A DNA stretch of 64,000 bases from an uncultured Acidobacteriota bacterium. Lineage in GTDB: Bacteria; Acidobacteriota; UBA4820; DSQY01. Every line of letters starts with the position of its first letter. Positions within the stretch are counted from its first letter, which is position 1. Of the stretch, positions 7,980 to 55,010 are shown one piece after another. The stretch is taken from the NCBI GenBank assembly GCA_963724125.1, contig CAVRTJ010000006.1, forward strand, positions 17,780 through 81,779. The letters run 5' to 3'. A model generated the notes under the pieces. The model was not told the origin of the DNA. It saw nothing but the letters and a program-made list of their open reading frames with translations, and made no database searches. The position numbers and the translations under genes are program-made.

Positions 7980-8044
7980 TCGAACCCCTCTCGTCGCCAC
8001 GCGGGCGACACGTCTGCCGGCGCCGTCTCGGACCGAGCAATATT

Positions 8045-8073: not shown

Positions 8074-8118
8074 CAGGGTTTGGGATTTGTGCCTGATTCG
8101 CATCACGGAGGTTAAACG

Positions 8119-8532: not shown

Positions 8533-8544
8533 AGGTATGCACGT

Positions 8545-10847: not shown

Positions 10848-10856
10848 CGGGGGACC

Positions 10857-12961: not shown

Positions 12962-12978
12962 TCGGATAGGAGCTGACC

Positions 12979-13278
12979 ATGTACCATTTGCTGACCGACA
13001 AGCAGATCGAAAGTAACATGAAGGACCTCGAGGGATGGGTTGCGAAAGACAAGTCCCTCACCAGGCACTTCCGCTTCGAAGGCTACATGGATGCACTCAA
13101 GTTCGTCGAGGCCGTTGCGGTTGACGCAGAATCCCGTGATCACTACCCCGACGTTCTTTTCAAGTACCTCGAAGTGGTCATAGTGCTCTCATCCCACGAC
13201 GGTGAAGGAATGACTGAAATGGACTTCATTTCAGCCAGGGCGATCGATAAACTGGCGGCGACTTTCAACGCCGGCTAG
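12979..13278 (+). CDS. 4a-hydroxytetrahydrobiopterin dehydratase (pterin-4a-carbinolamine dehydratase).
   Basis: LEGWVAKDKSLTRHFRFEGYMDALKFVEAVAVDAESRDHYPDVLFKYLEVVIVLSSHDGEGMTEMDF matches the PCD/DCoH fold motifs. Confidence 0.8.
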   Translation: MYHLLTDKQIESNMKDLEGWVAKDKSLTRHFRFEGYMDALKFVEAVAVDAESRDHYPDVLFKYLEVVIVLSSHDGEGMTEMDFISARAIDKLAATFNAG

Positions 13279-13427
13279 GCCGTCCCGCAGAGGTCCACGG
13301 CATCCCCCCGCTTTGCCGAAAACCGAGGAATATCTGTCCCCTGTCCAACTCATTGGTCTACCTGGCCTTAGCTCCCGGATGGCCCCGCATGCCCCACCAG
13401 TTGCCCACAACGCCAGCCCTGTTGGAT

Positions 13428-13455
13428 TTGACTCTGCCCCGAAAATCTGTATAAT
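13428..13455 (+). promoter_or_regulatory. Candidate sigma70 promoter for tRNA-Lys (TTGACT, 16-nt spacer, TATAAT).
   Basis: Near-consensus hexamers ending about 7 nt before the mature tRNA 5' end. Confidence 0.45.
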
Positions 13456-13462
13456 TGCCCAC

Positions 13463-13538
13463 GGACCGCTAGCTCAATTGGTAGAGCAGCGGACTCTTAA
13501 TCCGTTGGTTCGGGGTTCGAGTCCCCGGCGGTCCACCA
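13463..13538 (+). tRNA. tRNA-Lys (anticodon CTT), with encoded CCA.
   Basis: Cloverleaf read by hand. Acceptor GGACCGC/GCGGTCC, D-arm GCTCAATTGGTAGAGC, anticodon loop CTCTTAA, T-arm CGGGGTTCGAGTCCCCG, ACCA end. Confidence 0.9.
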
Positions 13539-13960
13539 GGCAGAATGATCCCAGGGAGGCGCAGCCTCCCTTTTTTGCTGTATACGGCATCGGTCTGCAC
13601 GAGGGAGCGAGAAGGGCGGGGTTTTCCGTGGTTTTTGAGGTGCAGGCGCCAACTGCTTGGCGCCGCGCCCCCCGCCCCGGGAACCACAGCTTCCCTTGAA
13701 ACGCAGCGAACCGTGCGAACGAGGCTTCTAGGAAAGGTCGGTTCGAGTCCCCGGCGGTCCACCAGGCAGAATGCCCCAGGGAGGCGCAGCATCCCTTTTT
13801 TGCTGTGCACCGCATCGGCCTGCACGATTGAGCGAGAAGGGTGGGGGGCGCCCATGGTTTTCCCGACGCGGACCCCAACTGCTTGGCGACGCGTTTTCTT
13901 AGCCCCGAAAGGCCCCCCGCTCCGGAAACGCTCGCTGCCCTTGAAACGCCATGCCTTCAG
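13514..13960. repeat. Tandem duplication, two units of about 225 bp at roughly 80% identity. Each unit begins with the tRNA-Lys T-arm/3' end, including the terminator-like segment.
   Basis: GGTTCGAGTCCCCGGCGGTCCACCAGGCAGAATG..CCCAGGGAGGCGCAGC..TCCCTTTTTTGCTGT recurs at 13514 and 13739. CCAACTGCTTGGCG(C/A)CGCG recurs at about 13648 and 13875. CCCTTGAAACGC recurs at about 13694 and 13938. Confidence 0.6.
13554..13577 (+). terminator. Rho-independent terminator after tRNA-Lys.
   Basis: GGGAGGC-GCAG-CCTCCC hairpin followed by TTTTTT. Confidence 0.6.
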
Positions 13961-19041: not shown

Positions 19042-20865
19042 GTGGCAAGGCGAACATCAGTTCTCGCTGGATTGGCACTCGGCTTGGCTCTGGCCGGAGT
19101 CGTGGCGCTTCCCCTGGCTGCGGGGCTTGCCTCCGCCGGCGAAGGACGCATCTACGACATCCTGATGCGACTCCGGGAAGGCCGGCCTTCCGCTAAGGTC
19201 CGCCTGGTTTGTCTGGATGATACGACCTTTTCGGCGCTTGGGGGCCGTAATCCGACACGGGCAGAGATAGCCTCGGCCGTCGACAATATCTGGCAGGCCG
19301 GTGCGAGTCTCATCGGGCTTGATCTGCTGTTCGACCAACCTCGCGACGAAGCCGGGGACGACGCGTTGCAAAAGGCGCTGGCGAGCGCCGACGCCGTTCT
19401 CGCCTGCAGTCCCTCCAACGGCCTCATGCCCATCCAGCGGTTTCGAAGTCAAGCCGTTGGTCTCGGATCCGTCGATTTCCTCACCGACCGGGACGGGATC
19501 GTGCGTTCCCTGCCGGGGCCCTACTTTCAGAGCGACGGAAAGAGCCTCGCCGTTCGATACATGCCGATGGCGCTCGAGTGCGCTTTGCTTTACTGGTATC
19601 CCCGCACACACCCCCCACTGAAGCTTTCCCATGACAAGCTCAAGATCGGAGATCATGACTTTTCAATGGCGGGTCACTCGTGGCTGATCCCATTCTGCGG
19701 CGGGGACGGCACTTTGCCCCGGCTCTCGTTCCTGACCGCCCTCAAAGGAGGATCGGCGCTAAAAGCCCTCAAGGGGACGATCGTCCTCGTGGGTTCGACG
19801 CGTCCCAGCCAGCACGACTTTTTCTCGGTCCCGTTGCCGCGGCGCCGGACACGGACCGGGGCGTTCAAGGAACTTGGCAGCAATACCATGGCGGGCGTCG
19901 AGATACACGGCCAGGCGCTCTCTGCACTTCTGGACGGGCGTTCCATCGTTCCGGTCGGCCCCGCCATGCGGTGGCTTTTGTTCGGACTCCTGGCCCTGCT
20001 GGGAACCACTCTCACCATCTTTCCCATGAAGCCCGTCGCCTCCCTCGGTCTCTGGCTCATGTTGGGATTAACCATCGAAATCGGCGGCATCGCGGCCATG
20101 CTTCACGGCCGCCCCTTCCCCCTCCTCGGCCTTTCATTGACGTGGCTCGCGTATGCAGGGACGTCCTTCTCCTACCATCGCTACCTCGATTTCCGCGAAA
20201 GAAAGGCCGTCGAAATACTATTCAGCCGCTACGTGTCACCCAACATCGCGCGGGCTCTTCTCGCCAGGCCCGACTTGGTCCACCTGGGCGGAAGACGGAA
20301 GGTCCTCTCCGTCCTCTTCGTGGACATACGAGGGTTCACCAGCCTCTCGGAGCGCCTCCCGCCCGAGGCCGTCAGCGCCCTGCTCAACGAATACTTCACG
20401 GAAATGACGGACGTACTCTTCGGTTTCGACGGAACCCTGGACAAGTTCATCGGAGACGCCCTTCTGGCTTTTTTCGGCGACCCCGTCGACCAGGAGGATC
20501 ACCCGGCGCGCGCAATAGCGTGCGCGGTCGCCATGCAGAAGAGAGCGGCAGCACTTCGCGAGAGATTCGAGTCGGAAGGCAAACCCGCCCTTCATGTCGG
20601 CATTGCCGTTCATACGGGGCCTGTTGTCGTCGGGAACAACGGTTCGGCCGACAACTTTGATTACACGGTCATCGGAGACGCCGTGAACCTCGCCTCGCGG
20701 CTCCAGGCCCTAGCCACGGCGGACGACGTCATAACGACGACCCGGACCATCGAACATATTTTCGAGTTCAAAACGCGTTATGCTTATGAAGAGCTGCCAC
20801 CTGTACAGGTGAAAGGAAAAAGCGAACCCGTAGCCATTGCTAGGGTTCTGGGGCCAGTCCAATAG
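19042..20865 (+). CDS. CHASE2 extracytoplasmic sensor domain plus class III adenylate/guanylate cyclase.
   Basis: N-terminal TM, then CHASE2-like RLVCLDDTTFSALGGRNP..GASLIGLDLLFDQP. Several TM segments. Cyclase core LSVLFVDIRGFTSLSERL..DKFIGDALLAFFGDP..AIACAVAMQ..HVGIAVHTGPVVVGNNGS..YTVIGDAVNLASRLQ. Confidence 0.85.
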   Translation: MARRTSVLAGLALGLALAGVVALPLAAGLASAGEGRIYDILMRLREGRPSAKVRLVCLDDTTFSALGGRNPTRAEIASAVDNIWQAGASLIGLDLLFDQPRDEAGDDALQKALASADAVLACSPSNGLMPIQRFRSQAVGLGSVDFLTDRDGIVRSLPGPYFQSDGKSLAVRYMPMALECALLYWYPRTHPPLKLSHDKLKIGDHDFSMAGHSWLIPFCGGDGTLPRLSFLTALKGGSALKALKGTIVLVGSTRPSQHDFFSVPLPRRRTRTGAFKELGSNTMAGVEIHGQALSALLDGRSIVPVGPAMRWLLFGLLALLGTTLTIFPMKPVASLGLWLMLGLTIEIGGIAAMLHGRPFPLLGLSLTWLAYAGTSFSYHRYLDFRERKAVEILFSRYVSPNIARALLARPDLVHLGGRRKVLSVLFVDIRGFTSLSERLPPEAVSALLNEYFTEMTDVLFGFDGTLDKFIGDALLAFFGDPVDQEDHPARAIACAVAMQKRAAALRERFESEGKPALHVGIAVHTGPVVVGNNGSADNFDYTVIGDAVNLASRLQALATADDVITTTRTIEHIFEFKTRYAYEELPPVQVKGKSEPVAIARVLGPVQ

Positions 20866-20876
20866 GGAGGTTGACC

Positions 20877-21956
20877 ATGTGTAGACACCCCGCTTTGCTC
20901 GGCGCGATCCTGATCCTGCTCATGGGGCTTGCGCCCATGGCGCAGACCACGGTCACGGTCACGGGAACCGCCGCCATTCTGAACAAAGATGCGACCCAGG
21001 CCCGGGATCGGGCCATCGAGAATGCGCTGAGAACGGCCGTGGAGAGAGTCGTAGGCACCATGGTCGATTCGGACAGCCTGGTCAAAGACAATGACCTCCT
21101 CTCGGACAAGATCTATACCCAGACCACGGGCTACATATCGAACTACAAGATCCTCTCCGAGAGCAGCGACACCGATTCGAACATCTACAGCGTGAAGGTC
21201 GAAGCCTCGGTCAAAGAGGGCAACCTCTCCAACGATCTCAAGTCCCTCGGCGTCCTGATGCACAGGATGGATATGCCCCGCGTGGCCGTGGCGCTCCAGG
21301 AACAGGACGAGACCGCATCCGACCAACTCCTGAGAATGCTGAAAAACAAGGGTTTTCTCGTCGTCGATACGGGGCAGAAATCTCAGTCGCAGGGCTTCTG
21401 GGATATGAACCAGGGACAACAGGCGGACCTGATGAAGCGGTACGGCGCCGAAGTCGTGATTCTAGGCACGGCGAAGGGCGAAGGAGGATCCAGCATCGGC
21501 GGCTCGAGCCTCAAGTCCTACCAGGCCAACGTGAGCCTCAAGGCCCTCAAGACAGATTCCCACGAAGTGCTTGGAACCTCCACGGGCAGTGGAACGGCCG
21601 TGCACGTCGGTGAGGCGGGCCTGACACAGGCGACGAGACAGGCCATCACCGTCGCGGGCAACGACATCCTGAGGCAGATTACATCTCAGTGGGCTAAAGA
21701 GACATCATCCACCCGTATCATCGCGCTGGAAGTCCTTTCTGCTGATGCGTCGAAGGCCGGGAATATAGCAAAAAAACTCAAGCAACAGGGACGTGGGATA
21801 CAAGATGCCATCGTCCGCGAAGCCGAAGGGGGACGCGCTACGCTGAACGTCTCCATGCAGGGAGACGCCTCGGCTCTGGCACAGGAAATCAGGAAGATCT
21901 ATCCGGGAGCACGGATCGTCTCCCAGTCCGCAAACCGTTTGACAGTGTCTTTTTGA
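20877..21956 (+). CDS. Exported two-domain protein with an LPP20-like N-terminal domain and a CsgG-like second domain.
   Basis: GGGAGG RBS. Signal peptide LLGAILILLMGLAPMAQT. TVTVTGTAAILNKDATQARDRAIENALRTAVERVVG (LPP20-type). Then PRVAVALQEQDETASDQLLRMLKNKGFLVVD (CsgG-like motif). Confidence 0.5.
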   Translation: MCRHPALLGAILILLMGLAPMAQTTVTVTGTAAILNKDATQARDRAIENALRTAVERVVGTMVDSDSLVKDNDLLSDKIYTQTTGYISNYKILSESSDTDSNIYSVKVEASVKEGNLSNDLKSLGVLMHRMDMPRVAVALQEQDETASDQLLRMLKNKGFLVVDTGQKSQSQGFWDMNQGQQADLMKRYGAEVVILGTAKGEGGSSIGGSSLKSYQANVSLKALKTDSHEVLGTSTGSGTAVHVGEAGLTQATRQAITVAGNDILRQITSQWAKETSSTRIIALEVLSADASKAGNIAKKLKQQGRGIQDAIVREAEGGRATLNVSMQGDASALAQEIRKIYPGARIVSQSANRLTVSF

Positions 21957-21990
21957 AGCGTTTATTCTGGACATAAGGGAGGACAAGCCC

Positions 21991-22881
21991 ATGAAACGGA
22001 CACTCGTTTCTATTTTCATTGCACTCTGCGTGATGACCTCGCTGGCGGCTCTGGCCCAGAAGCCGAGGATAGCCGTTCTTAAGATCAGAAACGACCAGCC
22101 TTACGGCGGCGCCCGCCTCGGCCCGGCCGTCGGAGACTGGCTCGTCGAAAAGCTCGTCCAATCGGGGCAGTATCGCGTCATGGAACGCCGCGAGATCAAC
22201 TCGGTCCTGCAGGAACAGGGATTTTCTCTCAGCGGAGCCGTCGACGATAAGACCGCCATCCAAGCCGGTAAACTCCTCGGCTGCCAGCTCGTCGTCCTGG
22301 GAGCGGTCACCGACTTTTCCCGGCACAAGTCCGGCGCCCACGGCGCATTCGGCATCGCCTTCAACGTCGGGAAGGTAACGGCCGAGGGAACGCTCAATAT
22401 AAGGCTTGTCAACACCACAACCGGCGAGATCGTGTACACGGGGAGCGCCTCCGGCACACACTCTTTTTCCAAGGTGGACGTGGCCGGTTTCGGGGGTGGC
22501 GTGGATTGGGATGAATCCCAGGCCAGGCAGATCTTCGAACCCGCCGTGACCCACTTGGTGAACAAGATTGTGGCCAAAACGGCTGCGATCAAGGACAGTC
22601 TCGGATCCGTCGCTGAATTATCCGGCAAGGTCGCGAAAGTCGATGCCGGGAAGCTCTTTCTCAACATTGGCAGTACCGACGGCGTGAAGCAGGGCGACAA
22701 GTTTTCACTTTATCACGTGGGTGATACAATCACCGATCCCGACACCGGAAAGGTCTTGGGACAGGAAAAGACTAGAATCGGGACCGTGACGGTCACCAAA
22801 GTCATGGCCGATCACCTCTCGGTGGGCGTCCTCGACGGCGGCGGCCACGCGGAAGTCGGCGACGCCGTTCAGAAGCAGTAG
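21991..22881 (+). CDS. CsgG-family outer-membrane lipoprotein (curli-secretion-channel-like) with a C-terminal beta-rich extension.
   Basis: AAGGGAGG RBS. Signal peptide. PRIAVLKIRNDQ..GPAVGDWLVEKLVQSGQYRVMERREINSVLQEQGFSLSGAVDDKTAIQAGKLLGCQLVVLGAVTDF is the CsgG family signature. Confidence 0.7.
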   Translation: MKRTLVSIFIALCVMTSLAALAQKPRIAVLKIRNDQPYGGARLGPAVGDWLVEKLVQSGQYRVMERREINSVLQEQGFSLSGAVDDKTAIQAGKLLGCQLVVLGAVTDFSRHKSGAHGAFGIAFNVGKVTAEGTLNIRLVNTTTGEIVYTGSASGTHSFSKVDVAGFGGGVDWDESQARQIFEPAVTHLVNKIVAKTAAIKDSLGSVAELSGKVAKVDAGKLFLNIGSTDGVKQGDKFSLYHVGDTITDPDTGKVLGQEKTRIGTVTVTKVMADHLSVGVLDGGGHAEVGDAVQKQ

Positions 22882-44969: not shown

Positions 44970-46757
44970 TCAGCGTCCATCCGCCTCGGAAAAAAAACCG
45001 GCCGGCAGGCGCACGCCGCATAGCCCGTCCACGAAGGAATCCCCGTCTTTGAAAAAGGGCACCGCCGCGTAAACGGGCCTCTGCGCCTCAAAGTCGGCCG
45101 ACACGCCCGTCACGTCCGAGAAACGATCCAGGTAGGCCAGCCAGGTGAGCCTCGCCATCTCCGGTATCACGGACGGGTCCCGGATACCGTCCACCAGCCT
45201 GGAGTCGGCCGCATCATCGAACACGAGCGCGTCCAGCCTCCATCTGCGCATACCTGAGGGTCAGGTTATCGAAGTACGCAAGGCGCATGTTCCAAAAGGC
45301 AGGAAAATAAAGCGGCCCCAGTGGCCTGACCTTGCCGTAGGGCTTCAGTCTGCGGGGGTCCTCCGCCTTGAGCTTCAGTTTGCCCGTGCAGCGCCAGAAT
45401 GGGAGCGTAAAGAAGGGGGCCTTTGCGGACGAGAATCGGCTTGAGGAATCTCAATGCATAGGGTTTGTCCGGCGCCTTCATGAATACCGCCCTCTTGCAG
45501 TTACGGCACACGTAGACCAGCGCGCTGCCCACCGCCCTCCAAGTCCGAGCCGCAGTTGCCGCAGGTCAGGGCCGTCAGAAGCGGCTCTCGGCTCATGGCG
45601 TTCTCCCCTGAACGGTTTCGCTGGCTTCGGAACATGACACGAAATCCCGCCCTCAGCAGTCCGTTGACGGGGTTCAGGGGACTCGGCGCCATTTCTCCGG
45701 CGGACTCTATCATGGCGCTCCCCTTCCTGAGCCTCACGTAAAACGGCGTTCGGAAAAAGACCCACGCCGCGTTGAGCCCCGCTGCAACTATGACACCGAC
45801 GACCGCGCAGACCACCGCCAGTGCCTTGAGCGTGCCCGCCCAGTCCTGCCTGATCGCCTCCGTGCCTCCCACGAACTCCAGAAGGGTACGGCCGAACTGC
45901 CCCACGAAGAACGCCAGTATGGCAATCAGGGCCAGTCCCAGAAGAAAGGCCCAGTCCCGCCTGAATGGAAGGCGTCCCGACAGGTTGGTGCCCTGGACCT
46001 CTTCGATGGTGATCGAGACGATCTCACCCCTGTAGCGGAAGGTGAGGAACTGAACGGGCACGTAGACGACCAGTGCCGTCAGCTCAAGGACTTTCAGGTC
46101 GCCCGTCACCTTCGAGAATGAAGCGACGCCCTTTTCCACGATCGTCTGAAGCGGGATATTGGCGTCAACGACCTCTCCATCCCGGACGAGATCCGCGATG
46201 GAAGCCGGCCTGGCAGCATCAAGATTGGCCGTGACCACGTCCCTCAGGTCCTCGTCGAAGAAGTCCCACGATTCCAGGGAGACGGCAGGGTAGAGATAGC
46301 GGAAATCGCCGAGAATGACCCTGCTGTCTTCTTCTACGACGACATCGGGCCGGCTGAACTGGTACCCAGAGGATACCCCGTCGCCCGACGACGCCGCCAT
46401 CCTGTCCACTATCGTGGACTGCGGAAGGGGGGTTTTGATGCGTTCCCGGCCCGTCGCCAGCACGCCGCCGCGCTTCCCGGTCAGAAGATAGAAGGGAATG
46501 TAGGTACGATGCTTCTGGAGAAGAAGCGCCTTCTTCCTTAGACCGCTGGGCAACCAGGGGCTCTTGAAGAGCTTAAGGCTCGTCCGGTGCAGGTCCCCGT
46601 CGGGCACGCCCGGGGACAGCACCAGGCACGGCAGGAAGTCTTCGCCGGTGTAGAAGAGATCCTTGCCGCAGTAAGAGCAGTGCGTCTTCCGTGCGCCCAG
46701 CGGCGGAGCCACGGCGCCTCCGCAGGAAGGGCAGGCCAGTGCCCTGGGAGCACTCAT
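44970..46757 (-). CDS. Zinc-ribbon-containing membrane protein of unknown function (about 595 codons), paralogous N-terminus to the upstream gene. C-terminal third read across two frame changes.
   Basis: ATG at 46757. N-terminal CPSCGG..CSYCGK ribbon. Two TM helices (AFLLGLALIAILAFFVGQF, LAVVCAVVGVIVAAGLNAAWVFF). A second ribbon CGNCGS..(shift)..VCRNCKRAVFMK. Tail continues to 44970. Confidence 0.5.
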
Positions 46758-47470
46758 GATTCCTCCTTCTCGAGGAATCCCCTCAGGGCGGGGTAACAGA
46801 CCGCCGCCGTAGCCGCCACGACGACCAGTGCGATCCAGCCTTCCAGCATGAAAGCCTCCGCGCCGAACAGACAGAAAAGCAGGGTCAGTGCCCACCAGAA
46901 CCGCCTGGTGATCCTTCCGCTCAACGGTGGCGGCGTCTGCTCCAAATGCACGCTCCCCACCACTGCATCCAGCCAGGCCGTATAGCTCGCCTTTTCCGTC
47001 CCGAAGCTGATCCTGAAGAACGGAACGAGGTAGAGACTGAACGCGCCGGCGTCGGGATGGTTCTGCCAGAGGGCGGAGGTGTTGTCCGAGCAGGGTATGG
47101 GCTCGAAGCCGTCCGGAGGCTCGGCCGAAACGAGTGCTCCCGCCGGCGGGAGCCTGAAGCCGTGGAGCGCGGCCGGCAACGGGGAAAAGGCTGGGAAAGT
47201 ATCGCCGCTCTCCTTCCCTCTCACGCCCCAGAACGGTAATAAAAGACCCTTCACCTGCAGGATCGGCAGCCGTGGCATTTCGCGCCGGCCGAGTTCATCG
47301 GCGAGCACGGAACGAGCCCTCGCCTCGGACACCGACGGCGGCAGTTGAAAGCGCTTGAAGGTCTGCGCCCTGTCGAGGAAAAGCGTGGAGTCGCAGAAGG
47401 GGCACTTGAGGAAGGGGTCGTCACGCTCCAGTGTGATTTTAGCGGAGCAATTCGCGCACCGTATTTCCAT
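46754..47470 (-). CDS. Zinc-ribbon-containing membrane protein of unknown function (238 aa).
   Basis: MEIRCANCSAKITLERDDPFLKCPFCDS ribbon, a middle region and two C-terminal TM helices (FWWALTLLFCLFGAEAF, WIALVVVAATAAVCY). 4-nt ATGA overlap with the downstream paralog. Confidence 0.55.
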   Translation of the reverse strand: MEIRCANCSAKITLERDDPFLKCPFCDSTLFLDRAQTFKRFQLPPSVSEARARSVLADELGRREMPRLPILQVKGLLLPFWGVRGKESGDTFPAFSPLPAALHGFRLPPAGALVSAEPPDGFEPIPCSDNTSALWQNHPDAGAFSLYLVPFFRISFGTEKASYTAWLDAVVGSVHLEQTPPPLSGRITRRFWWALTLLFCLFGAEAFMLEGWIALVVVAATAAVCYPALRGFLEKEES

Positions 47471-47500: not shown

Positions 47501-48910
47501 CTATTTCCGCCCCTGACTCTCCCGCACCATTTCCGCCAGGCGCCTCGGGAGATCGAAGAAGGGCCCGGATGAAAAGAAAACGACGAGGCTGGGGGGGTCG
47601 CCGATATCCTTCAAGTGATCGAGGTAAGCCTCGGGACTGTCCTTGATCGACGACACCTTGCCCGAAACGGACAGCACTTCGGCTACCTTCTGGAGGTTCA
47701 GCCTGTCCGCCTCGGGGATCTTTGTCGAAGGTACGAGCGGTCCGAGGAGGACCTCGTCGGCAAGCGCGAAAGCCTCCGGCAGTGCGTCCTGATGGAGCTT
47801 TGTCTGACAGCTGAAGGAGCGCGGTTCGAAGCAGGCCACGACTCGGTGCCGAGCGTATCTCTGCCTGAGGCCTTTCAAGGTCTCGCGAATGGCCGTGGGA
47901 TGGTGGGCGAAATCGTCTACGATGACCAGGCCGTCACGATTAAAAACAACCTCCTGCCTGCGCCGAACGCCGGGGAACTTCTCCAGTGCGCTCTGCAGGA
48001 GCCCGAGTTCGGCGCCCGCCTCCAGGCACGCCGCGAGCGCACCGATGCAGTTCCTCAAGTTGTGGGAACCGTAGAGGGTGCTTTGGAAGGCGCCGAGGGA
48101 CTTGCCCCTGAACAAGAGCCTAAACCTCGTTCCTCCCTCCGTGTAGGCGACATCGGAGACCGACCACTCTTCTCCGCCCGACAGACCGAACGACTGGACC
48201 CTCCGACCGGCCGACGTGACCAGGCGCGACACCGAGGGCGATTCCGTTCCCGCCAGCACGAGGCCGTTCTCCTTGACTGCGCCAAAAAGTCTCAGGAAGG
48301 CTGTTTCCAGTTCAGCGAGGCTCCCAAAGTTGTCCAGGTGGTCGAGTTCAATGTTGTTGAGTACGAGCGTAGAGGGGTCGTAATGCAGGAACTTGGGCCC
48401 CTTGTCGAAAAAGGACGTTTCGTACTCGTCCCCCTCGAGGACCGTCCACTCGCCGCCCCCCCATCGGAAGGACGCGTCCCAGCCGCCCACGATGCCGCCG
48501 ACCAGAACGTTGGGATGGAAGCCCGCCTCGCTTAGAAGCCATCCACACAAGGCGGTCGTGGTGGTTTTGCCGTGGGTCCCGGCCACCACGAGGCTCTTTC
48601 TGTCCAGGACGGTGAACCGCCTGATGGCCTCCGCCATGCTCAGGTACTCGATCCCCATGTCCGCGGCGGCCGCGGCTTCGTCATTCCCCGCGTGCACCGC
48701 ATTTCCGATGACGACGAGATCCGGCCTGGGATGCAGGTGCACCGGGTCGAAGCCGTTCGTGCTGACCTCTATGCCATATCGCTTGATCGCCTCACTCATC
48801 GGCGGATACAGGGCCGTATCACACCCGCTGACATCGTGCCCCTGTGCCTTGAGGAGCCCCGCCAGAGCTCCCATGCCCGTGCCTCCGACCGCCATCATGT
48901 GGATGCGCAT
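47501..48910 (-). CDS. mpl: UDP-N-acetylmuramate:L-alanyl-gamma-D-glutamyl-meso-diaminopimelate ligase (murein peptide ligase).
   Basis: GGAGAGAAC RBS plus the ATG at 48910. MRIHMMAVGGTGMGALAGLLKAQGHDVSGCD, VAGTHGKTTTTA, Mur ligase middle and C-terminal domains (DDFAHHPTAI). Confidence 0.85.
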   Translation of the reverse strand: MRIHMMAVGGTGMGALAGLLKAQGHDVSGCDTALYPPMSEAIKRYGIEVSTNGFDPVHLHPRPDLVVIGNAVHAGNDEAAAAADMGIEYLSMAEAIRRFTVLDRKSLVVAGTHGKTTTTALCGWLLSEAGFHPNVLVGGIVGGWDASFRWGGGEWTVLEGDEYETSFFDKGPKFLHYDPSTLVLNNIELDHLDNFGSLAELETAFLRLFGAVKENGLVLAGTESPSVSRLVTSAGRRVQSFGLSGGEEWSVSDVAYTEGGTRFRLLFRGKSLGAFQSTLYGSHNLRNCIGALAACLEAGAELGLLQSALEKFPGVRRRQEVVFNRDGLVIVDDFAHHPTAIRETLKGLRQRYARHRVVACFEPRSFSCQTKLHQDALPEAFALADEVLLGPLVPSTKIPEADRLNLQKVAEVLSVSGKVSSIKDSPEAYLDHLKDIGDPPSLVVFFSSGPFFDLPRRLAEMVRESQGRK

Positions 48911-49073
48911 GTTCTCTCCATGGTTCCCGGAGCGGATCAATCCCGATGTCTTTTCGCCCGACAAGTCTTCTGCTCGCCCGGCTGGGCTTCGCCCAGGTGA
49001 AAGACGGCTCTTTGATAGAGTACCATTGATGGCCACGCGTTGTCCCACGGCCTTGCCGACAAGCCCGTGTTCC

Positions 49074-49102
49074 TTGAAATTGCGGACCCGTCCTGCTAAC
49101 TT
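49074..49102 (+). promoter_or_regulatory. Candidate sigma70 promoter for pduS-pduT (TTGAAA, 17-nt spacer, TAACTT) in the mpl/pduS divergent region.
   Basis: Read directly from the sequence, immediately upstream of the GGAGGA RBS at 49111. Confidence 0.35.
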
Positions 49103-49119
49103 TGCCTTTTGGAGGATCC

Positions 49120-50418
49120 ATGGCTAAAGCTGCAACGATTGCCCTCAAGTGCGGTGTGGTCGGCGCGGGAGGAGCGGGCTTCCCCACGCACGTCAAACTC
49201 GGCGCACGAGCCGATACCTTTGCCGTCAACGCGGCCGAATGCGAGCCCCTGCTTTACAAAGACCAGGAAATATTGGAGAACTTTCTGGGGCCGTTCAGTG
49301 AGGGCCTCCTGCTCTGCGCCGAATCCGTGGGTGCGGACCGGGTCCTGATCGGCATCAAAGAAAAACACGCCACCCTCATCGAGCGCCTGCGGGACGAGTT
49401 GCCTCCGGGCGTGGAAGTGTGCCCGCTGAAGGATACCTATCCGTCGGGCGACGAGCACATCCTCGTCTACGAAACAACGGGCAGGGCCATCCCGAAGGGC
49501 GGCCTCCCACTCGATGTCAACGTCGTAGTCAACAACGTGGAAACGGTCTTGAACGTCGGCCTGCAGAAGCCGGTCACGGAAACGTTCGTGACCGTTTCCG
49601 GTGCGGTGCCCGAGGTCCTGACCTTCAAGGTACCCATAGGCGCCTCGTTTGCCGACGTCCTGGCGGCCGCCGGCGCTCCGATGCAGGATATGGGATTCGT
49701 CATCAACGGCCCCATGATGGGGCGAGTCACCACCGACCTTTCCGAGCCTGTCACAAAGACCACTTCGGGGATCCTTGTCTTGCCCCTCGGACACTCGCTG
49801 CTGCAGAGGAAAACCCGAACGAAGCAAACGGTGCACAAGATCGCCTATACATGCGATCAATGCATGCGCTGTTCTGACTTCTGCCCCAGGGATCTCCTCG
49901 GACACATCGTCAAGCCTCACAAGGCCATGATCTCGGTCGGTTTTTCGGCCGAAGAGGCCACCGCCTGGCAGGAAACGGCACTCTACTGTTGCGAATGCGC
50001 CCTCTGCACTCTCTACGCGTGCCCGGAAGACCTGGATCCCTTTCGTATCATGGTCGAGAGCAAGCGGGCACTCATGGCCAGGGGTGTCAGGCCCAGGAAG
50101 GAAGAGGTCCAACCTCTCGCCATGTACGACTACCGGAGAACCCCCACGAAGCTCCTCATGAGACGCCTTGACCTGACGCGCTTCGACGCTCCGCACCGGT
50201 TCGAACAGAGGGAAGTCTCTTCCCCGGTGCTGCGCATCCCGCTAAAACAACACACGGGAGCCCCTTCCCTGCCTGTCGTCGCGTCCGGCGATCGCGTCGA
50301 ACCCGGCCAGCTTATCGCCGAGATTCCGAAGGACAGCCTGGGGGCCAGGATCTTCGCCCCCAGGAGAGGACACATCCTGTCCGTCGAGACTGACGGCATT
50401 ACTCTGGAGGTTTCATGA
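49120..50418 (+). CDS. pduS: PduS-like (RnfC-family) flavo-iron-sulfur protein, a cobalamin-reductase-type microcompartment electron-transfer protein.
   Basis: GVVGAGGAGFPTHVKL (NuoF/RnfC-type nucleotide site), SLBB region, two ferredoxin-type motifs CDQCMRCSDFCP and CCECALCTLYACP, C-terminal barrel-sandwich domain. Start codon overlaps the downstream gene (ATGA). Confidence 0.85.
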   Translation: MAKAATIALKCGVVGAGGAGFPTHVKLGARADTFAVNAAECEPLLYKDQEILENFLGPFSEGLLLCAESVGADRVLIGIKEKHATLIERLRDELPPGVEVCPLKDTYPSGDEHILVYETTGRAIPKGGLPLDVNVVVNNVETVLNVGLQKPVTETFVTVSGAVPEVLTFKVPIGASFADVLAAAGAPMQDMGFVINGPMMGRVTTDLSEPVTKTTSGILVLPLGHSLLQRKTRTKQTVHKIAYTCDQCMRCSDFCPRDLLGHIVKPHKAMISVGFSAEEATAWQETALYCCECALCTLYACPEDLDPFRIMVESKRALMARGVRPRKEEVQPLAMYDYRRTPTKLLMRRLDLTRFDAPHRFEQREVSSPVLRIPLKQHTGAPSLPVVASGDRVEPGQLIAEIPKDSLGARIFAPRRGHILSVETDGITLEVS

Positions 50419-51098
50419 GCCCAAGGATCCACCAGATAAAGACGGAGCGCAGAGCATCCGATCGACGCGCCCGGCCTGAGCGGGCCGGTTCAAAAGACTC
50501 CGGAAGTGCCGCCGGACCTACCTCCCGCCCCGCGGCACGCAACGCTATCGGGCTGCTCGAACTCACCTCCATCGCCAAGGGAATAGAAGCCACCGATATC
50601 ATGCTCAAGGAATCGGACGTCGAACTCCTCACGAGCCGTTCCATCTGTTCCGGGAAATACATGGTCCTCGTGCGCGGCGACGTGGCCGCCTGCACCTCTT
50701 CAGTGGCCGCCGGCGAAGCCCTCGGTCGCGAGACGGTGGCCGATTCCATCGTCATTCCCTACCTCCACGAGGAAGTGTTCCCGGCAATTTCCCAATCCGC
50801 GATGGTCGAGAATGTGGAGGCACTGGGCATTCTGGAGGCGTTCAACGTGGCCACGCTGATCGAGGGCGCGGACGCCGCGGTCAAGGCCGCCGAGGTGCAC
50901 CTCCTGGAAATCCGCATCGCGATGGCCCTCGGCGGAAAGGCGTTCTGTGTGGTCACGGGCGAGGTATCGGCCGTTCGCGCGGCCGTCGATGCGGGAAAGG
51001 CCGTCATCGGGGAAAAGGGCCTGCTCACGAACTGGGCCGTGATCCCGGCCCCCGATCCCAACCTCGTCAAAGAAGTCCTCGGCGGAAGGCTGGTGTGA
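50415..51098 (+). CDS. pduT: PduT-like tandem-BMC-domain shell protein (BMC-T) with a ~50-aa Arg/Ser/Pro-rich N-terminal extension.
   Basis: Two BMC domains (AIGLLELTSIAKGIEATDIMLKESDVELL..SICSGKYMVLVRGDVAA and ALGILEAFNVATLIEGADAAVKAAEVHLLEIRIAMALGGKAFCVVTGEVSAV). Conserved Cys in the SICSGK loop at the PduT Fe-S position. GGAGG RBS before the ATG at 50415. Confidence 0.85.
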   Translation: MSPRIHQIKTERRASDRRARPERAGSKDSGSAAGPTSRPAARNAIGLLELTSIAKGIEATDIMLKESDVELLTSRSICSGKYMVLVRGDVAACTSSVAAGEALGRETVADSIVIPYLHEEVFPAISQSAMVENVEALGILEAFNVATLIEGADAAVKAAEVHLLEIRIAMALGGKAFCVVTGEVSAVRAAVDAGKAVIGEKGLLTNWAVIPAPDPNLVKEVLGGRLV

Positions 51099-52504
51099 CC
51101 GATCGGAACTTTTCATGGGGTAGTCCAATGGGCTCTTTCGTTTATACCCACTGTGCGTTGAGAACCTCCGAACAAAAAGGATCCACGGGATTCGCAAGGG
51201 GTCTGTGTATTTTTGTCGCATTCTGCCTTGCCGCCCTGGGCGCCTTCGCCCAAGGTGCAACAGAGAATCCCCAGCCTCCGCCCGCAAAGCAGATCACCGG
51301 CGTCATCACGGAGAGTGGATTCACTCGGCTCAACGTTGCCCTGCCTCCCTGTAAAACGGATACGAAGACGTCTCAACAGGGCAGGCAGATCATTTCTGTG
51401 GTTCAGGATGATCTGGACTTTTCCGGCTACTTCGCCATCGTTCCCGCTTCCCTCTACGCCGGCATGAACCTCGGCGACTCCACCATGGATTACAACGCGT
51501 GGAAAGGCATGAAGGCCGATTACCTCCTACTGACCACCCTGTACAGGTCGGAGGGCCAACTCACGCTGGAAGGGCGACTCTACGACATAAAACGTGAGGA
51601 GATGGTCACCGGAAAGCGCATCAAGGCACCCGAGCACGAGATACGCGCGCTGGGACACAACATGTCTTCCGTCATCCTCGACTATCTTTTCGGCGCCGGG
51701 GCGTTCCCCACGAGCCACGTCCTCTTTACTTCGCACCTGGGCCGGACGGAGGACATTTTCCTCTGCGACTACGACGGGAAAAACTTGATCAGACTGACCG
51801 CCATGGGCCAGTTGAACGTCACTCCGGACGTTAACGCAAACGGCAGCCTCATGGTATTCACGTCCATCCTCAAGGACAGGCAGGAGATCTTCCTGCTCAA
51901 CAGGCAGGGAAAGCGGACCAAGTTGTACGGCGAGGGCGAAGGTCTGAATTCCAATCCCCGCTTTTCCCACGCGGGCAAGACCGTGGCTTTCTGCACGTCC
52001 CGATCGGGTAATCCCGACATTTGGACGATAGGGACGGACGGCAAGCACATGAAGAGGATCACCTTCTCTTGGGCCATCGACACGGCGCCCACGTGGTCTC
52101 CGGACGACCAGAAAATAGCGTTCACCTCCGACCGCTCCGGCTCCCCGCAGATCTACGTCATGGACAGAGACGGCGCCAATGTGAAGCGCCTCAGCCCCCC
52201 GGACAGCGGACGCTGCGACCAGCCATCGTGGTCTCCCCGAGGCGATAAGATTGCATACGCCAGTTTCAAGGACGGTCACTTCAACATAGCCGTCATCGAT
52301 CTCAATACCAACGAGGTGACCTACCTTACGCACGGGGAGGGCGACAACGAAGCGCCAAGCTGGTCTCCCGACGGCCGTTACCTCGCATTCGCGAGCAACC
52401 GATCGGGGAGCTACCAGATCTACATCATGCGCTGGGATGGAACGGGAGTGACCAGAATCACCCACCAGCCTGACTGCTACTCACCCTGCTGGTTCAAGGG
52501 ATAG
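51095..52504 (+). CDS. tolB: TolB-like periplasmic beta-propeller protein. Start uncertain: GTG 51095 overlapping the pduT stop, or ATG 51128, or TTG 51158.
   Basis: Signal peptide GLCIFVAFCLAALGAFAQG. TolB N-domain-like region. Repeated propeller blades with SP(D/R)G motifs (WSPDDQKIAFTSDRSGSPQIYVMD, PSWSPRGDKIAYAS, PSWSPDGRYLAFASNRSGSYQIYIM). Confidence 0.7.
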   Translation: MTDRNFSWGSPMGSFVYTHCALRTSEQKGSTGFARGLCIFVAFCLAALGAFAQGATENPQPPPAKQITGVITESGFTRLNVALPPCKTDTKTSQQGRQIISVVQDDLDFSGYFAIVPASLYAGMNLGDSTMDYNAWKGMKADYLLLTTLYRSEGQLTLEGRLYDIKREEMVTGKRIKAPEHEIRALGHNMSSVILDYLFGAGAFPTSHVLFTSHLGRTEDIFLCDYDGKNLIRLTAMGQLNVTPDVNANGSLMVFTSILKDRQEIFLLNRQGKRTKLYGEGEGLNSNPRFSHAGKTVAFCTSRSGNPDIWTIGTDGKHMKRITFSWAIDTAPTWSPDDQKIAFTSDRSGSPQIYVMDRDGANVKRLSPPDSGRCDQPSWSPRGDKIAYASFKDGHFNIAVIDLNTNEVTYLTHGEGDNEAPSWSPDGRYLAFASNRSGSYQIYIMRWDGTGVTRITHQPDCYSPCWFKG

Positions 52505-52530
52505 TACCGAGGGGGACACATAAATCTGTT

Positions 52531-54225
52531 ATGTTGAGGCATCTCAAGCTCCATGATTTCGCGCTTGTAAAGGACCTCGAACTGGAACCGGGGGAGGGTT
52601 TGTGTCTCCTCACGGGCGAAACGGGCGCGGGCAAGTCAATTCTCGTAGGCGCCGTCGGCCTTCTGTCGGGACAGCGCGCCGAGTCCGAAATGGTGCGAGA
52701 CGGAAGCGACGCAGCGGTCGTTGAAGGTTCCTTTCACGTTCAGCGGCACGCGCCGGAGGTATCGGCCCTGCTCGAGCAGTGGTCTCTCCCCTTCGATGGG
52801 GAAGTGATAGTCCGCCGCAGGGTGCTCAGAGAAGGCAGAAACGCCATCACGGTCAACGGCGGCGCGGTGACGCTTGCCCAACTCAAGGACCTGGGCGCTC
52901 ATCTCGTACAGGTCCACGGCCAGAACCAGGGACAGTCCCTTCTCGATGAGGAGGTCCACAGAAGCATACTCGACGGTCTGCCCGACGTGTCTCCAGCGGC
53001 CGGGGCGCTCGGGCTGTCGTTCGAGGCGCTCGAACAGGCCCTTCGCCTGTTGCGCGGCATTCAAAGGAGCGAGTCCGAGCGGGCACAGCGCCTTGACACG
53101 GTGGTCCTGCAAAGGGGCGAAATAGACCGCGTTGGTCCCAGCCCCGGCGAGGAGGACGAGCACCTAATCGCCAAAGCACGCATGCAGAACGCGGAGGACA
53201 TAGCCGAGGCAGCCAATGCCGTCGCCTCCCTCTTGCGGGACGACGAAGCGAGCGTCGCCTCCCAGCTCGCCGAAGCAAGGCGCAGACTGGGCGACCTTGG
53301 CGACATGGACCCCTCGTGGATCCCGTACATCAAGGACCTGGAGAATTCGGCCGATGTGCTGGCAACCATTGCCTCCGAGGCGGAACGAACCGCTTCCACC
53401 GTAAATTATGACCCGGAGGCGCTCGAGAGTGTCCTCCAACGGCTCGCCGACCTGGATGGCCTTAAGAAGAAATACGGTCCATCCCTCGACGAGGTGCTTG
53501 CCCACAGGAACGCCCTCGAAGAGGAATACGCCGAACTCACGGGCAGAGCCGTTTCTGAGGCCGAGGCCCTCAGGCGCCTGGACGGAGCCTTCGCGGGCTA
53601 CCAGGAAGCCGCCCGTGTCTTGTCCCGCCTCCGTGTCGCCGCGGCACGGTCCTTTTCAACATCGGTGGAGACTGCCCTCCGCCCGCTGGCCATGGACAAG
53701 GCCCGTTTTCAAGTGCAATTGCCTCCCCGCTCCATAGAGGACCCGAAACAGGCCAGTCGTCTGGGTAACGAGGACGTACGATTTCTCTTCTCCGCCAACC
53801 CGGGCGAATCTCCCAAAGCTCTCTCCAAAATAGCATCCGGCGGAGAGCTCAGTCGCTGCCTGCTGGCTTTGCTGACGGTCGCCCTGGGGGGTACCGCGCC
53901 CGATACGCTCGTCTTCGACGAAGTCGACGGGGGCATCGGCGGCCGCCCGGCTGAACGCGTCGGCCGCAGTCTCAGGAAGCTCGCCTCGAAACACCAGGTC
54001 CTGTGTATCACTCACTTGCCACAGATCGCCGCATTCTCCCACTGGCACGCAAAGGTCGAGGGGTAGGTCGATGCCGGCAGGACCGTCGTGGCGGCCCGGG
54101 TTCTCCCCGAAGCGGAAAAGGCGGACGAGATCGCCCGCATGCTGGCCGGCGAGACGATCAATGAAACCGCACGCCAGCACGCGCTTCAACTCATCAAGAC
54201 GTCGGAGAGATCCGAAGGACGGTGA
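52531..54225 (+). CDS. recN: DNA repair protein RecN, with an in-frame TAG at 54064-54066.
   Basis: Walker A LTGETGAGKSIL, coiled-coil middle, signature/Walker B region GGELSRCLLALLTVAL..LVFDEVDGGIGG, then HAKVEG-TAG-VDAGRTVVAARVLPEAEKADEIARMLAGE continuing in the same frame to the stop at 54223. Confidence 0.8.
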
Positions 54226-54277
54226 AATCTGGCTCCTCGGGCCGCCTTCATCGGCAGCCGGAGAGCCTTGAAGGCGC

Positions 54278-55010
54278 TTACCTCTGCGTGTAGCTGATGA
54301 CAAAGGACCGCGTATCCGGGCCACCGCCCTGGAGGGGACCCCATAGCCGCTCCTGGTCTTTCGCACTATCCGGGCCTTGAATTGTACGACCTTCAGCGGT
54401 ACCGTGCCGGGAACACCGAGGATGAGGGTGATCAAGGCATTCTGATCCAGATGCCCAGCGAGTACTATCTGCGCGCCCGAGAGCGAGATGTCCTTGAGGA
54501 TCCCTTTGAATTTTTCGCCCAACTGAGCGAGACAATGCAGGCCGTCTCGAATCTTTTGCGCACGGCCTTCCGATTCTCGGCTTCCGGATCCACCCTCACT
54601 GAAGGGGCGGTCCCACCCACGGGTCCCGTCGGCGCAGAACTCATCACGAATCTCAGAGCCTGCCTGAGAGTCTCCTCGCCGATCGGCCGGGCGATCAGCA
54701 GGCCCGCCCCGGCCGCGTGGGCGTCGGGTTCCAGGTCCCTGTCGGAGATAAGCAAGATGGGCAAGTCTTCGAAGCCGGCCTGTTTCTTCAGGGCCCGGAT
54801 CGTATCCAAACCTATGACCGCCTGCTTGTCGAGATCCACGACAAGCAGATCCGGCACGCCCTTGATGTACATGCCCTGGACGGCTTCCAGATCGCTGCCG
54901 AAACACTCGATCTTCGTTGACTCCGGATCGAGCGGCGATACCGCTCTCTTAAGCGTATTCAGTTCTGCGTCTTCTAAAACTGCCGTGATTTTCACCGTCC
55001 GCCCCCGCAA
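54278..55010 (-). CDS. Response-regulator receiver plus PilZ domain protein (second paralog), read across 2 frame changes. Start at GTG 54995 or TTG 55010.
   Basis: Receiver-like KITAVLEDAELNTLKRAV..VPDLLVVDLDKQAVIGLDTIRALKKQ..PILLISD. PilZ-like KFKGILKDISLSGAQIVLAGHLDQNALITLILGVPGTVPLKVVQFKARIVRKTRSGYG in another frame. Confidence 0.5.

Follow-up and report, generated by a model that had tools for sequence, protein, structure and literature searches.

A PduS/PduT-type gene pair between mpl and tolB-recN in a Thermoanaerobaculia-like acidobacterium, probably a satellite NAD+-recycling module

Introduction

What does a microcompartment shell protein do next to a redox enzyme when no other microcompartment gene lies nearby? 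This question is raised by the window (the whole 64-kb stretch of DNA that was analysed), in which a gene for a PduS-like protein is directly followed by one for a PduT-like shell protein. A sequence-only reading of this DNA had regarded such isolation as unusual, and proposed that the pair either serves as a satellite to a main microcompartment (BMC) locus elsewhere in the genome or is used outside a microcompartment.

The PduS/PduT pair corresponds to the MNdh/BMC-T^SE module for NAD+ recycling, which was characterised in PNAS in 2024, with functional as well as EPR data that support the NADH-driven passage of electrons through the two proteins (PMC11626177). According to the same study, the MNdh and BMC-T^SE genes are adjacent in 97% of loci, and satellite occurrences amount to 5/7 in ACI and 18/20 in PVM. 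The BMC catalog of Sutter 2021 (PMC8217296) describes ACI as an Acidobacteria-specific BMC type, reported mainly in subdivisions 4 and 6, with a main locus of class II aldolase, hydroxyacid dehydrogenase, BMC-H and a BMC-P triplet, and with the aldehyde dehydrogenase (AldDh) on a satellite. Its Supplementary Data 2 gives PduS/PduT homologues "as pairs in a satellite location" for ACI, FRAG1 (24/57) and SPU1. Bryobacterales/Solibacteraceae and Ignavibacteria are published hosts of ACI and FRAG1 shells. Thermoanaerobaculia, Aminicenantes, UBA4820 and UBA690 are not named in the catalog and supplement text that was searched, and our literature search found no paper tying Thermoanaerobaculia or Aminicenantes to microcompartments.

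Results and Discussion

The gene pair and its surroundings

The features of the locus are collected in Table 1. A GGAGGA sequence (49111-49116) stands ahead of the PduS-like ORF start and a GGAGG (50406-50410) ahead of the PduT-like ATG, both as read from the sequence. The start/stop overlap of the two genes would keep the PduS and PduT partners co-translated, presumably in matched amounts. In the interval 48700-54800, the promoter scan called no sigma-70-like promoter, and the terminator scan returned 7 matches against 5.4 expected, which is the level of chance. Other genes of the window's contig, namely recN and an RND transporter, contain probable frameshifts. An ENA contig (37 kb) with an identical BMC-T falls inside the span of the window. 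Exact-sequence look-ups of the PduS-like protein and of two proteins from the window edges matched no record.

Table 1. Features of the pduS-pduT locus (positions in the window)
Feature	Position	Strand	Description
mpl-like Mur ligase (flank)	47501-48910/49048	-	ORF annotation
PduS-like metabolosome NADH dehydrogenase (MNdh)	49120..50418	+	432 aa from ATG; Pfam domains
Two [4Fe-4S] cysteine motifs, PduS-like protein	49852..50025	+	CDQCMRCSDFCP, residues 245-256; CCECALCTLYACP, residues 290-302
PduT-type tandem-BMC shell protein (BMC-T^SE)	50415..51098	+	227 aa; two PF00936 domains
ATGA start/stop overlap pduS/pduT	50415..50418	+	ATG 50415-50417, TGA 50416-50418; read from sequence
N-terminal extension, PduT-like protein	50415..50540	+	residues 1-42; basic, Ser/Pro/Ala-rich, predicted disordered (pLDDT < 50)
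Edge motif D61-x-x-x-K65, domain 1	50595..50609	+	DxxxK in 82/82 family members
Pore loop S-I-C-S-G-K	50640..50657	+	residues 76-81; aligned to C-P-G-K in PduT structures
Edge motif D153-A-A-V-K157, domain 2	50871-50885	+	A-D-A-A-V-K in 59/82 family members, close variants in 9 more
tolB (flank)	51128-52504		ORF annotation
recN (flank)	52531-54066		ORF annotation

The PduS-like protein

Pfam places a Complex1_51K domain (PF01512) at residues 10-146 (E 1.9e-38; 132 bits, cut-off 31.2), with the motif GAGGAGFP at residues 15-22. It is followed by a weak SLBB match (PF10531) at residues 157-202, which scores 21.4 bits against a Pfam cut-off of 27 and lies where this domain is expected, by Fer4_17 at residues 245-306 (E 1.1e-09), and by RnfC_N at the C-terminus, residues 370-424 of 432 (E 2.9e-11). 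If the weak SLBB match is counted, these are the four domains known from MNdh, RnfC-like but permuted and bearing two 4Fe-4S motifs (PMC11626177). When 70 homologues from related loci are aligned, the eight cysteines expected to ligate the two [4Fe-4S] clusters show 99-100% conservation. The protein bears no N- or C-terminal extension that could serve as an encapsulation peptide.

The PduT-like shell protein

The second gene encodes two BMC domains (PF00936, E 3.9e-44) in a tandem, non-permuted arrangement, as do BMC-T^SE proteins with their pore cysteine (PMC11626177). Its best NCBIfam model is eut_PduT (TIGR02526), with 131.7 bits against a cut-off of 250.3, and the protein is therefore a PduT-type homologue and not an equivalog of enteric PduT. 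Identity amounts to 46% with 3NWG and 45% with Citrobacter PduT (3PAC). The AlphaFold2 model (pLDDT 83) has the BMC-T^S fold and was matched by Foldseek to 3NWG, 3N79 and 3PAC with TM-scores of 0.92-0.94 and rmsd values of 1.2-1.8 A. Modelling of the second gene had been suggested as a check on the first reading; the fit to PduT-type structures rules out that the BMC fold is absent. Compared with the Salmonella and Citrobacter PduS/PduT proteins (3N79, 3PAC), the window pair shares the fold (TM 0.92-0.93), the trimer-type tandem BMC, the position of the pore cysteine and the domain set of PduS, but the window proteins are only 42-45% identical to them, the shell protein scores below the eut_PduT equivalog cut-off, and the pair lies outside a 20-gene operon and has no B12-dependent enzyme nearby.

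In alignments to 3PAC and 3NWG, Cys78 of the pore loop (50646-50648) occupies the position of Cys38 of Salmonella PduT, which marks it, at the level of sequence, as a predicted [4Fe-4S] ligand. The pore cysteine is invariant in the family, within C-S-G-K in 81/82 members and C-A-G-K in the remaining one (locus L064). The motif of BMC-T proteins encoded beside MNdh has been described as a universal CP(G/S)K (PMC11626177); the window protein departs from it in the proline alone and retains the Cys, Gly and Lys, and its C-S-G-K variant would be expected to bind a cluster as well. Since C-S-G-K is the motif of the subfamily, the "universal" CP(G/S)K is too narrow for annotation rules.

Both BMC domains carry a DxxxK edge motif. 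In BMC-H and BMC-T structures the residues of this motif mediate hexamer-hexamer contacts. Ahead of the first BMC domain lies the disordered basic extension of about 42 residues, which distinguishes the window protein from the published module (PMC11626177). The ORF offers no in-frame alternative start codon ahead of the BMC domain. Extensions starting with MS[PA][KR] are seen in the window and in six displayed loci of its clade (L002, L004, L006, L009, L011 and L012), and L013 and L014 lack it, as do those members displayed that fall outside the clade.

Taken one by one, the claims of the sequence-only reading about the pair itself hold. The identities of the two genes are borne out by Pfam, NCBIfam, solved relatives and the structural model, translational coupling through ATGA is evident in the sequence, the cysteine of the SICSGK loop does lie at the Fe-S position of PduT, and ORF annotation returned mpl and tolB/recN as the flanks.

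Isolation of the pair in the window and in related loci

The window, with 49 kb on the upstream side of the pair and 13 kb on the downstream side, was screened by tblastn, with a BMC-P profile HMM and with Pfam, which was run on 38 ORFs (the largest that do not overlap one another, and those flanking the pair). None of these screens turned up a BMC-H, BMC-P, aldehyde dehydrogenase, PduL, class II aldolase or RpiB gene in the 64 kb, so the earlier statement that no other shell or cargo gene accompanies the pair stands for the whole window. The components of the ACI main locus (class II aldolase, hydroxyacid dehydrogenase, BMC-H and the BMC-P triplet) and AldDh are likewise missing from the window. 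In the 64-kb window the pair thus lies away from any BMC-H+BMC-P main locus, as the satellite definition of Sutter 2021 asks of shell genes, with or without enzymes.

Among 160 related loci (about 2 Mb surveyed), the pair stands alone in 159. The single exception, L064 on an acidobacterial chromosome, is the only locus in which it is embedded in a full metabolosome locus, with the gene order DeoR, three BMC-P, RpiB, PduS, PduT, PduL, AldDh, BMC-H and class II aldolase; its BMC-T is 61% identical to that of the window. PduS lies upstream of BMC-T in nearly all 160 loci: one locus with enough upstream flank (L069) has no PduS match, and in L041 the two genes are separated by 1.7 kb. The expectation that such a pair sits among shell and cargo genes is accordingly correct for pdu operons and does not apply to the subfamily of the window. 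The implied unusualness of the isolated pair has to be given up, as satellites are reported both in PMC11626177 and in PMC8217296. This module usually stands by itself, as has been published before, and the window pair is no anomaly in that respect. Of the two options first proposed, the satellite that serves a main locus elsewhere in the genome is the published explanation for such pairs. Standing alone is close to a rule in this subfamily, and the 159/160 count is stronger than those published so far.

The host clade

The genome loci closest to the window come from Thermoanaerobaculia or Acidobacteriota MAGs (69-91% identity), and the window is part of a Thermoanaerobaculia-like clade of Acidobacteriota. 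This clade is monophyletic in the tree, comprises 14 loci with BMC-T identities of 69-96%, and maintains the gene order mpl<->pduS-pduT-tolB-recN. The synteny with mpl, tolB and recN reaches L013, whose PduS is only 50% identical, which suggests stable vertical inheritance within the core genome. A -4 start/stop overlap was computed in 8/14 loci of the clade. The other six are L003 and L010, for which an in-frame ATG is listed at the overlap position, and L005, L006, L008 and L012, in which the called upstream ORF continued past it. Few genes of the neighbourhood are as well conserved as BMC-T, whose conservation across the 14 loci reads, from the sequences, as purifying selection. Beyond the clade, the nearest relatives (55-65% identical) are found in Bryobacterales/Solibacteraceae and Ignavibacteria/Melioribacteraceae MAGs.

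Neither BMC-H nor BMC-P nor an aldehyde dehydrogenase was seen in the window clade (about 64 kb of the window genome and ±10 kb in the relatives). When the BMC-P of L064 was used as a protein query, it gave 120 matches, among which none was named Thermoanaerobaculia and none was tied to a PduT-bearing contig, an outcome that speaks neither for nor against vertex proteins in the clade.

Proposed function and alternative explanations

Based on our observations, we suggest that the pair is probably a functional MNdh/BMC-T^SE module for NAD+ recycling, placed in a satellite position in a Thermoanaerobaculia-like genome. By analogy with the characterised module, the PduS-like enzyme would sit on the luminal face of the shell and oxidise, at its FMN, the NADH produced by an encapsulated aldehyde dehydrogenase. 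Electrons would then pass through the two [4Fe-4S] clusters of the enzyme to a third one, which the PduT-like trimer would hold at its pore with three Cys78 residues, and would exit to a cytosolic acceptor. The enzyme activity of the pair is presumed from that of its counterparts. A main BMC locus in the window genome is presumed as well, and a BMC-H + BMC-P shell and its cargo should be encoded elsewhere in it. The two-gene unit with the dehydrogenase directly upstream of the shell protein is that of the GRM1 MNdh/BMC-T^SE of Clostridium botulinum, and the module is often encoded apart from its main locus (PMC11626177). Differences from that module are the pore motif, the N-terminal extension and the fact that the 64 kb of the window genome showed neither a cognate shell nor an aldehyde dehydrogenase. 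ACI and FRAG1 satellites, as described in PMC8217296, resemble the window pair in their stand-alone two-gene arrangement, and those of ACI also in the phylum of the host, whereas the window clade is separate, monophyletic and has a fixed mpl/tolB/recN neighbourhood of its own. Assignment to ACI needs a main locus, and the window presents an acidobacterial host and the pair alone. On the side opposed to the satellite module we counted the lack of BMC-H, BMC-P and AldDh in the surveyed parts of the clade, the searched catalog text that names no BMC of Thermoanaerobaculia or Aminicenantes, the BMC-P search that yielded no link to the clade, the C-S-G-K motif, the NCBIfam scores below their cut-offs and the fixed synteny with tolB-recN.

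The other option of the first reading is use outside a microcompartment. In its general form, the lineage would build no icosahedral microcompartment, and PduT-like trimers or sheets together with the PduS-like enzyme would act as a free-standing NADH:acceptor oxidoreductase, whose tail possibly docks to a partner or surface; we consider this unlikely. The more specific version, likewise unlikely in our estimate, is that a clade devoid of any BMC-H or BMC-P has long kept the pair at its fixed place (mpl<->pduS-pduT-tolB-recN) for redox work that needs no shell. NADH oxidation would then be coupled to a cytosolic or envelope acceptor by a BMC-T trimer or sheet that carries a [4Fe-4S] cluster and a lineage-specific basic tail. 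Use without a shell would agree with the finding of no further BMC gene in the 64 kb of the window or within ±10 kb of 18 clade loci, with the deep, fixed synteny with the housekeeping genes mpl, tolB and recN as far as L013, with the disordered basic extension confined to a subclade, and with the silence of the 2021 catalog, in the text searched, on this clade. However, the relatives from Bryobacterales/Solibacteraceae and Ignavibacteria are equally isolated, and they belong to groups published as ACI/FRAG1 shell hosts, so that isolation carries little information. Moreover, the edge motifs are invariant, as expected if the protein still tiles into a facet, and the literature consulted offered no precedent for such use. 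The locus would gain real importance only if the clade lacks shells, as a BMC shell protein would then be working outside a compartment; a shell-free redox device, if true, would be the first case in nature of a microcompartment shell protein employed where there is no microcompartment.

It is highly improbable that the pair is an evolutionary relic, left from a lost BMC locus and persisting by chance without function. Its isolated position and the probable frameshifts in recN and the RND transporter on the same contig might be taken as signs of decay, but both ORFs are intact, BMC-T ranks among the best conserved genes around it, and all nine cysteines expected to bind cofactors are conserved, as are the edge motifs and, in the loci where it was resolved, the ATGA overlap, while the proteins diverge to 69% (BMC-T) and 50% (PduS) identity. 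This pattern of conservation comes close to refuting a decaying remnant. The original biochemical assignment of Salmonella PduS as a cobalamin reductase (cited in PMC4207490 and in PMC11626177) leads to another possibility, namely that the enzyme serves B12 reactivation, on behalf of a diol or ethanolamine lyase, instead of recycling NAD+. We regard this as very unlikely here: the Pfam annotation of the 38 window ORFs contains no B12-dependent lyase, PduO/EutT adenosyltransferase or cob gene, the sole embedded homologue (L064) lies in an aldolase/RpiB/AldDh locus without a B12 enzyme, and the role has been argued to be inapplicable to types other than PDU and EUT (PMC11626177). Hardly credible, finally, is a misidentified RnfC, i.e. 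the C subunit of a membrane Rnf complex that lies beside a BMC gene by coincidence. Among solved structures the PduS-like protein is indeed closest to RnfC subunits (7ZC6, E 2.4e-40; 9ERI), whose FMN/NADH-binding and di-cluster ferredoxin domains are homologous to its own, and its best NCBIfam match is rnfC (TIGR01945). Nevertheless, the score of 201 bits stays under the rnfC cut-off of 246, and both the rnfC and PrdC scores are below their cut-offs. In the alignment to 7ZC6, residues 371-421 of the query correspond to residues 33-82 of the chain and residues 7-305 to 126-418, so that, unlike in RnfC, the protein is circularly permuted and its RnfC_N barrel is C-terminal, as in PduS/MNdh. No membrane partner genes (rnfABDEG) occur among the 38 ORFs annotated by Pfam, and PduS is paired with BMC-T in nearly all 160 loci (exceptions L069 and L041). 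The domain order and the conserved pairing refute the RnfC identity.

If the pair is a satellite NAD+-recycling module, as we favour, the window extends the host range of a module already characterised and known from satellite loci by one lineage. Thermoanaerobaculia-like Acidobacteriota are not among the hosts named in the literature consulted. The module is fixed beside tolB-recN in one acidobacterial clade and looks vertically inherited there, in contrast to the frequent horizontal transfer that has been published. This fixed synteny, together with terminator matches at chance level, is not what would be predicted for a conditionally used accessory module.

Identity of the PduS-like and PduT-type proteins

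A PduS-like gene translationally coupled through ATGA to a gene for a PduT-like tandem-BMC protein had been proposed from the sequence alone, and annotation bears out both genes and their overlap (Table). The first protein carries the PduS domain set, i.e. Complex1_51K (E 1.9e-38), a di-cluster ferredoxin domain and a C-terminal RnfC_N barrel, together with a weak SLBB match (Pfam). Among solved structures, RnfC subunits are the nearest relatives; PduS is told apart from these by circular permutation, and the permuted order is present here: the C-terminal barrel matches the N-terminus of RnfC, while the remainder matches downstream RnfC. The eight cysteines of its two motifs, CDQCMRCSDFCP and CCECALCTLYACP, are 99-100% conserved in 70 homologues.

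The second protein shares 46% identity with BMC-T 3NWG of Desulfitobacterium and 45% with PduT 3PAC of Citrobacter. Superposition of its AlphaFold2 model (pLDDT 83) on PduT-type structures gives TM 0.92-0.94 at rmsd 1.2-1.8 Å; the objection that the protein might lack the BMC fold when modelled therefore fails. Its score falls short of the NCBIfam cut-off for eut_PduT equivalogs, so that we class it as a homologue of PduT type, not as an equivalog of the enteric protein. The DxxxK edge motifs, which are those of BMC shell proteins tiling into facets, are invariant in the family. Also invariant is Cys78, which lies in the loop S-I-C-S-G-K and matches the PduT pore cysteine in the alignment, as the sequence-only reading had it.

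Two features differ from the published description of this module, in which the PduS and PduT homologues are named MNdh and BMC-T^SE (PMC11626177). In that study CP(G/S)K is called universal in BMC-T^SE next to MNdh, whereas the family analysed here has C-S-G-K, and annotation rules keyed to the former motif would overlook this subfamily. The other difference is the basic N-terminal tail, predicted to be disordered, of the window subclade (about 30-45 residues, with the conserved start MS[PA][KR]I/P..I[RK] and, after it, 30-40 basic residues rich in Ser, Pro, Ala and Gly). It is present in the window, L002, L004, L006, L009, L011 and L012, and absent from L013 and L014 as well as from the displayed non-clade members. 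Translation must take in the tail in the window, since the BMC domain has no other in-frame start ahead of it. Should the termini of BMC-T face the cytosol on the concave side, as those of BMC-H do, the tail could dock an external partner.

Features of the window and, in the last row, of the related locus L064
Feature	Position	Strand	Remarks
AcrB-type RND transporter	2999-6054		overlapping ORFs 2999-5077 and 4909-6054, different frames
Cyclase and lipoprotein genes	19042-22881
Zinc-ribbon-like proteins	45501-47470	-	adjacent ORFs, 238 aa and 464 aa
mpl-like Mur ligase	upstream flank	divergent to pair	324 bits to mpl, 287 to murC, both under cut-offs
PduS-like protein	49120-50418	+	432 aa from ATG; GGAGGA upstream at 49111-49116
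pduS/pduT ATGA overlap	ATG 50415-50417, TGA 50416-50418	+	GGAGG at 50406-50410 within 3' end of pduS
PduT-type BMC-T	50415-51098	+	227 aa; two BMC domains, E 3.9e-44 (Pfam)
N-terminal extension of BMC-T	50415-50540	+	residues 1-42; basic, Ser/Pro/Ala/Gly-rich, predicted disordered (pLDDT below 50)
Pore motif C-S-G-K	50646-50657	+	in 81/82 family members; C-A-G-K in L064
recN ORF	52531-54271 region
L064 metabolosome locus	5379-13924		DeoR, three BMC-P, RpiB, PduS, PduT, PduL, AldDh, BMC-H, class II aldolase

Genomic neighbourhood of the pair

The flanks are a divergent mpl and tolB/recN, in agreement with the sequence-only reading. The tolB start lies about 30 nt 3' of pduT and recN 27 nt past tolB; the three genes are co-directional, with no terminator call above chance between them (51098-52531). 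It is possible that the BMC module is co-transcribed with the envelope and DNA-repair genes tolB and recN.

Pfam annotation of 38 ORFs (the largest non-overlapping ones and the flanks of the pair) revealed only housekeeping and envelope functions, including an efflux pump, CcmF, TsaD, ribosomal protein S1, PFK, YebC, cysteine synthase, Lnt, RecG, acyl-CoA synthetase, TatA/C, MMPL and a sigma-54 activator. No second shell protein, vertex protein or typical cargo came up within the 64 kb by any of three methods: tblastn with canonical shell proteins, tblastn with shell and cargo proteins from a BMC locus of an acidobacterium, and a BMC-P profile HMM based on 125 sequences. The observation that the window holds no other microcompartment genes is thus confirmed in full.

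Distribution and conservation

Homologues come overwhelmingly from Acidobacteriota MAGs. A GTDB scan with one genome for each species gave 80 loci, and a JGI metagenome scan 80 more. The nearest 13 genome loci (L002-L014; 69-91% identical), labelled Thermoanaerobaculia, Acidobacteriota and, once, Aminicenantes, group with the window and ENA contig L001 as a single clade in a neighbour-joining tree. The order pduS-pduT-tolB-recN is found in every clade locus reaching far enough, mostly with the divergent mpl, and four metagenome contigs (L084-L087) share it; pduT-tolB-recN is retained even in L013, where RecN identity is just 36%. The 4-nt start/stop overlap was computed in 8 of 14 clade loci and two more have ATG at that position; in the remaining four the upstream ORF runs on and the overlap is not computable. 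Inheritance of the module in this clade thus looks vertical, at a fixed site, whereas the 2024 study stressed horizontal transfer (PMC11626177).

More distant relatives (55-65% identical), from Bryobacterales/Solibacteraceae, Ignavibacteria, Melioribacteraceae and Bacteroidota, lack the tolB synteny. Nearly all 160 loci have pduS upstream of the BMC-T gene. The exceptions are L069 (Sulfopaludibacter SbA3, 10001-10549), with no PduS homologue within ±10 kb of the BMC-T, and L041 (1075-5027), with a PduS match at a computed gap of 1.7 kb upstream of the BMC-T ORF.

In 159 of the 160 loci the DNA covered, about 2 Mb in total, shows neither shell genes (BMC-P, BMC-H) nor genes for aldehyde dehydrogenase, PduL, aldolase or RpiB; flanks of at least 9 kb on each side are available for 38 of the 80 genome loci. 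The sole exception is L064, on the complete acidobacterial chromosome CP070717.1 (Acidobacteriota bin48), where the pair is embedded in a complete metabolosome locus. The subfamily therefore does work within a metabolosome locus, and the solitary state is its usual genomic condition. The RpiB-like protein of the L064 locus has a Cys-rich N-terminal extension. The first BMC-P of the locus is nearest to proteins of Ignavibacteriae, Bacteroidetes, Calditrichaeota and KSB1 (63-67%), and this suggests a horizontal origin.

A probable satellite module

In the 2021 catalog (PMC8217296), a main locus is defined by BMC-H plus BMC-P, and distal shell genes are counted as satellites. Its Supplementary Data 2 describe paired PduS/PduT homologues as satellites of the Acidobacteria-specific ACI type, and place a PduS/T pair in 24 of 57 FRAG1 loci and PduS/T satellites in five SPU1 genomes. 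Its BMC-T^s tree includes PduT-type satellites of SPU1, SPU7, PVM, FRAG4, FRAG6, FRAG8 and GRM3C, as well as an unclassified acidobacterium entered as 'incomplete (sat) (omitted)'. Among more than 7,000 loci, MNdh occurs in 2,172, in 97% of these adjacent to BMC-T^SE, and the module is mostly a satellite in PVM (18/20) and ACI (5/7) (PMC11626177). Reduction of the shell protein's cluster by NADH was demonstrated in the same study, which proposed NAD+ regeneration for the encapsulated aldehyde dehydrogenase. The earlier interpretation is partly supported. Its first alternative, a satellite of a main BMC locus elsewhere, is how published work accounts for such pairs, whereas the implied unusualness of the orphan state finds no support, given how regularly the pair occurs alone and that satellite pairs are published. 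What had been called an 'orphan electron-relay module' is therefore one case of a known module in an arrangement already on record.

By homology, the PduS-like enzyme would sit on the luminal face of the BMC-T trimer and oxidise NADH at its FMN; electrons would pass via the two PduS clusters to a [4Fe-4S] cluster at the trimer pore, with three Cys78 as ligands, and from there to a cytosolic acceptor. The full and conserved set of cofactor ligands, the invariant DxxxK and the translational coupling support, at the sequence level, an active module. We infer activity of the pair, cluster binding by the C-S-G-K loop and a shell in the host organism.

We consider a satellite MNdh/BMC-T^SE module the best explanation, and a probable one, although both protein identifications are much firmer than the case for a main locus. 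A BMC-P protein search gave no match tied by contig or name to the window clade, and the available literature and supplement text of the 2021 catalog mention no BMCs of Thermoanaerobaculia or Aminicenantes. That the window clade runs the pair without a shell seems unlikely. Isolation by itself is no argument for shell-free use, because the pair is just as isolated in the published ACI and FRAG1 host lineages; the clade stands out only by its deep tolB-recN synteny and the subclade-specific N-terminal tail.

Other features of the window

The recN ORF stops after 511 aa, at position 516/563 of the NCBIfam model, and a 66-aa ORF comes after it, while RecN of L001 (99.4% identical, two indels relative to the window) has 564 aa; the window gene probably carries a frameshift or an assembly error. 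A frameshift or assembly indel is likewise the probable cause of the split RND transporter. The adjacent 238-aa and 464-aa proteins have zinc-ribbon-like N-termini (CxxC...CxxC) and hydrophobic C-terminal parts, have no NCBIfam match and a weak GIR1-like zinc ribbon as sole Pfam match, and are kept beside mpl in L001-L008 and L084. The gene for a CHASE2-adenylate/guanylate cyclase and, after it, the FlgT_N-like and CsgG/FlgT_C-like lipoprotein genes make up an envelope-signalling cluster that has no relation to the pduS-pduT pair.
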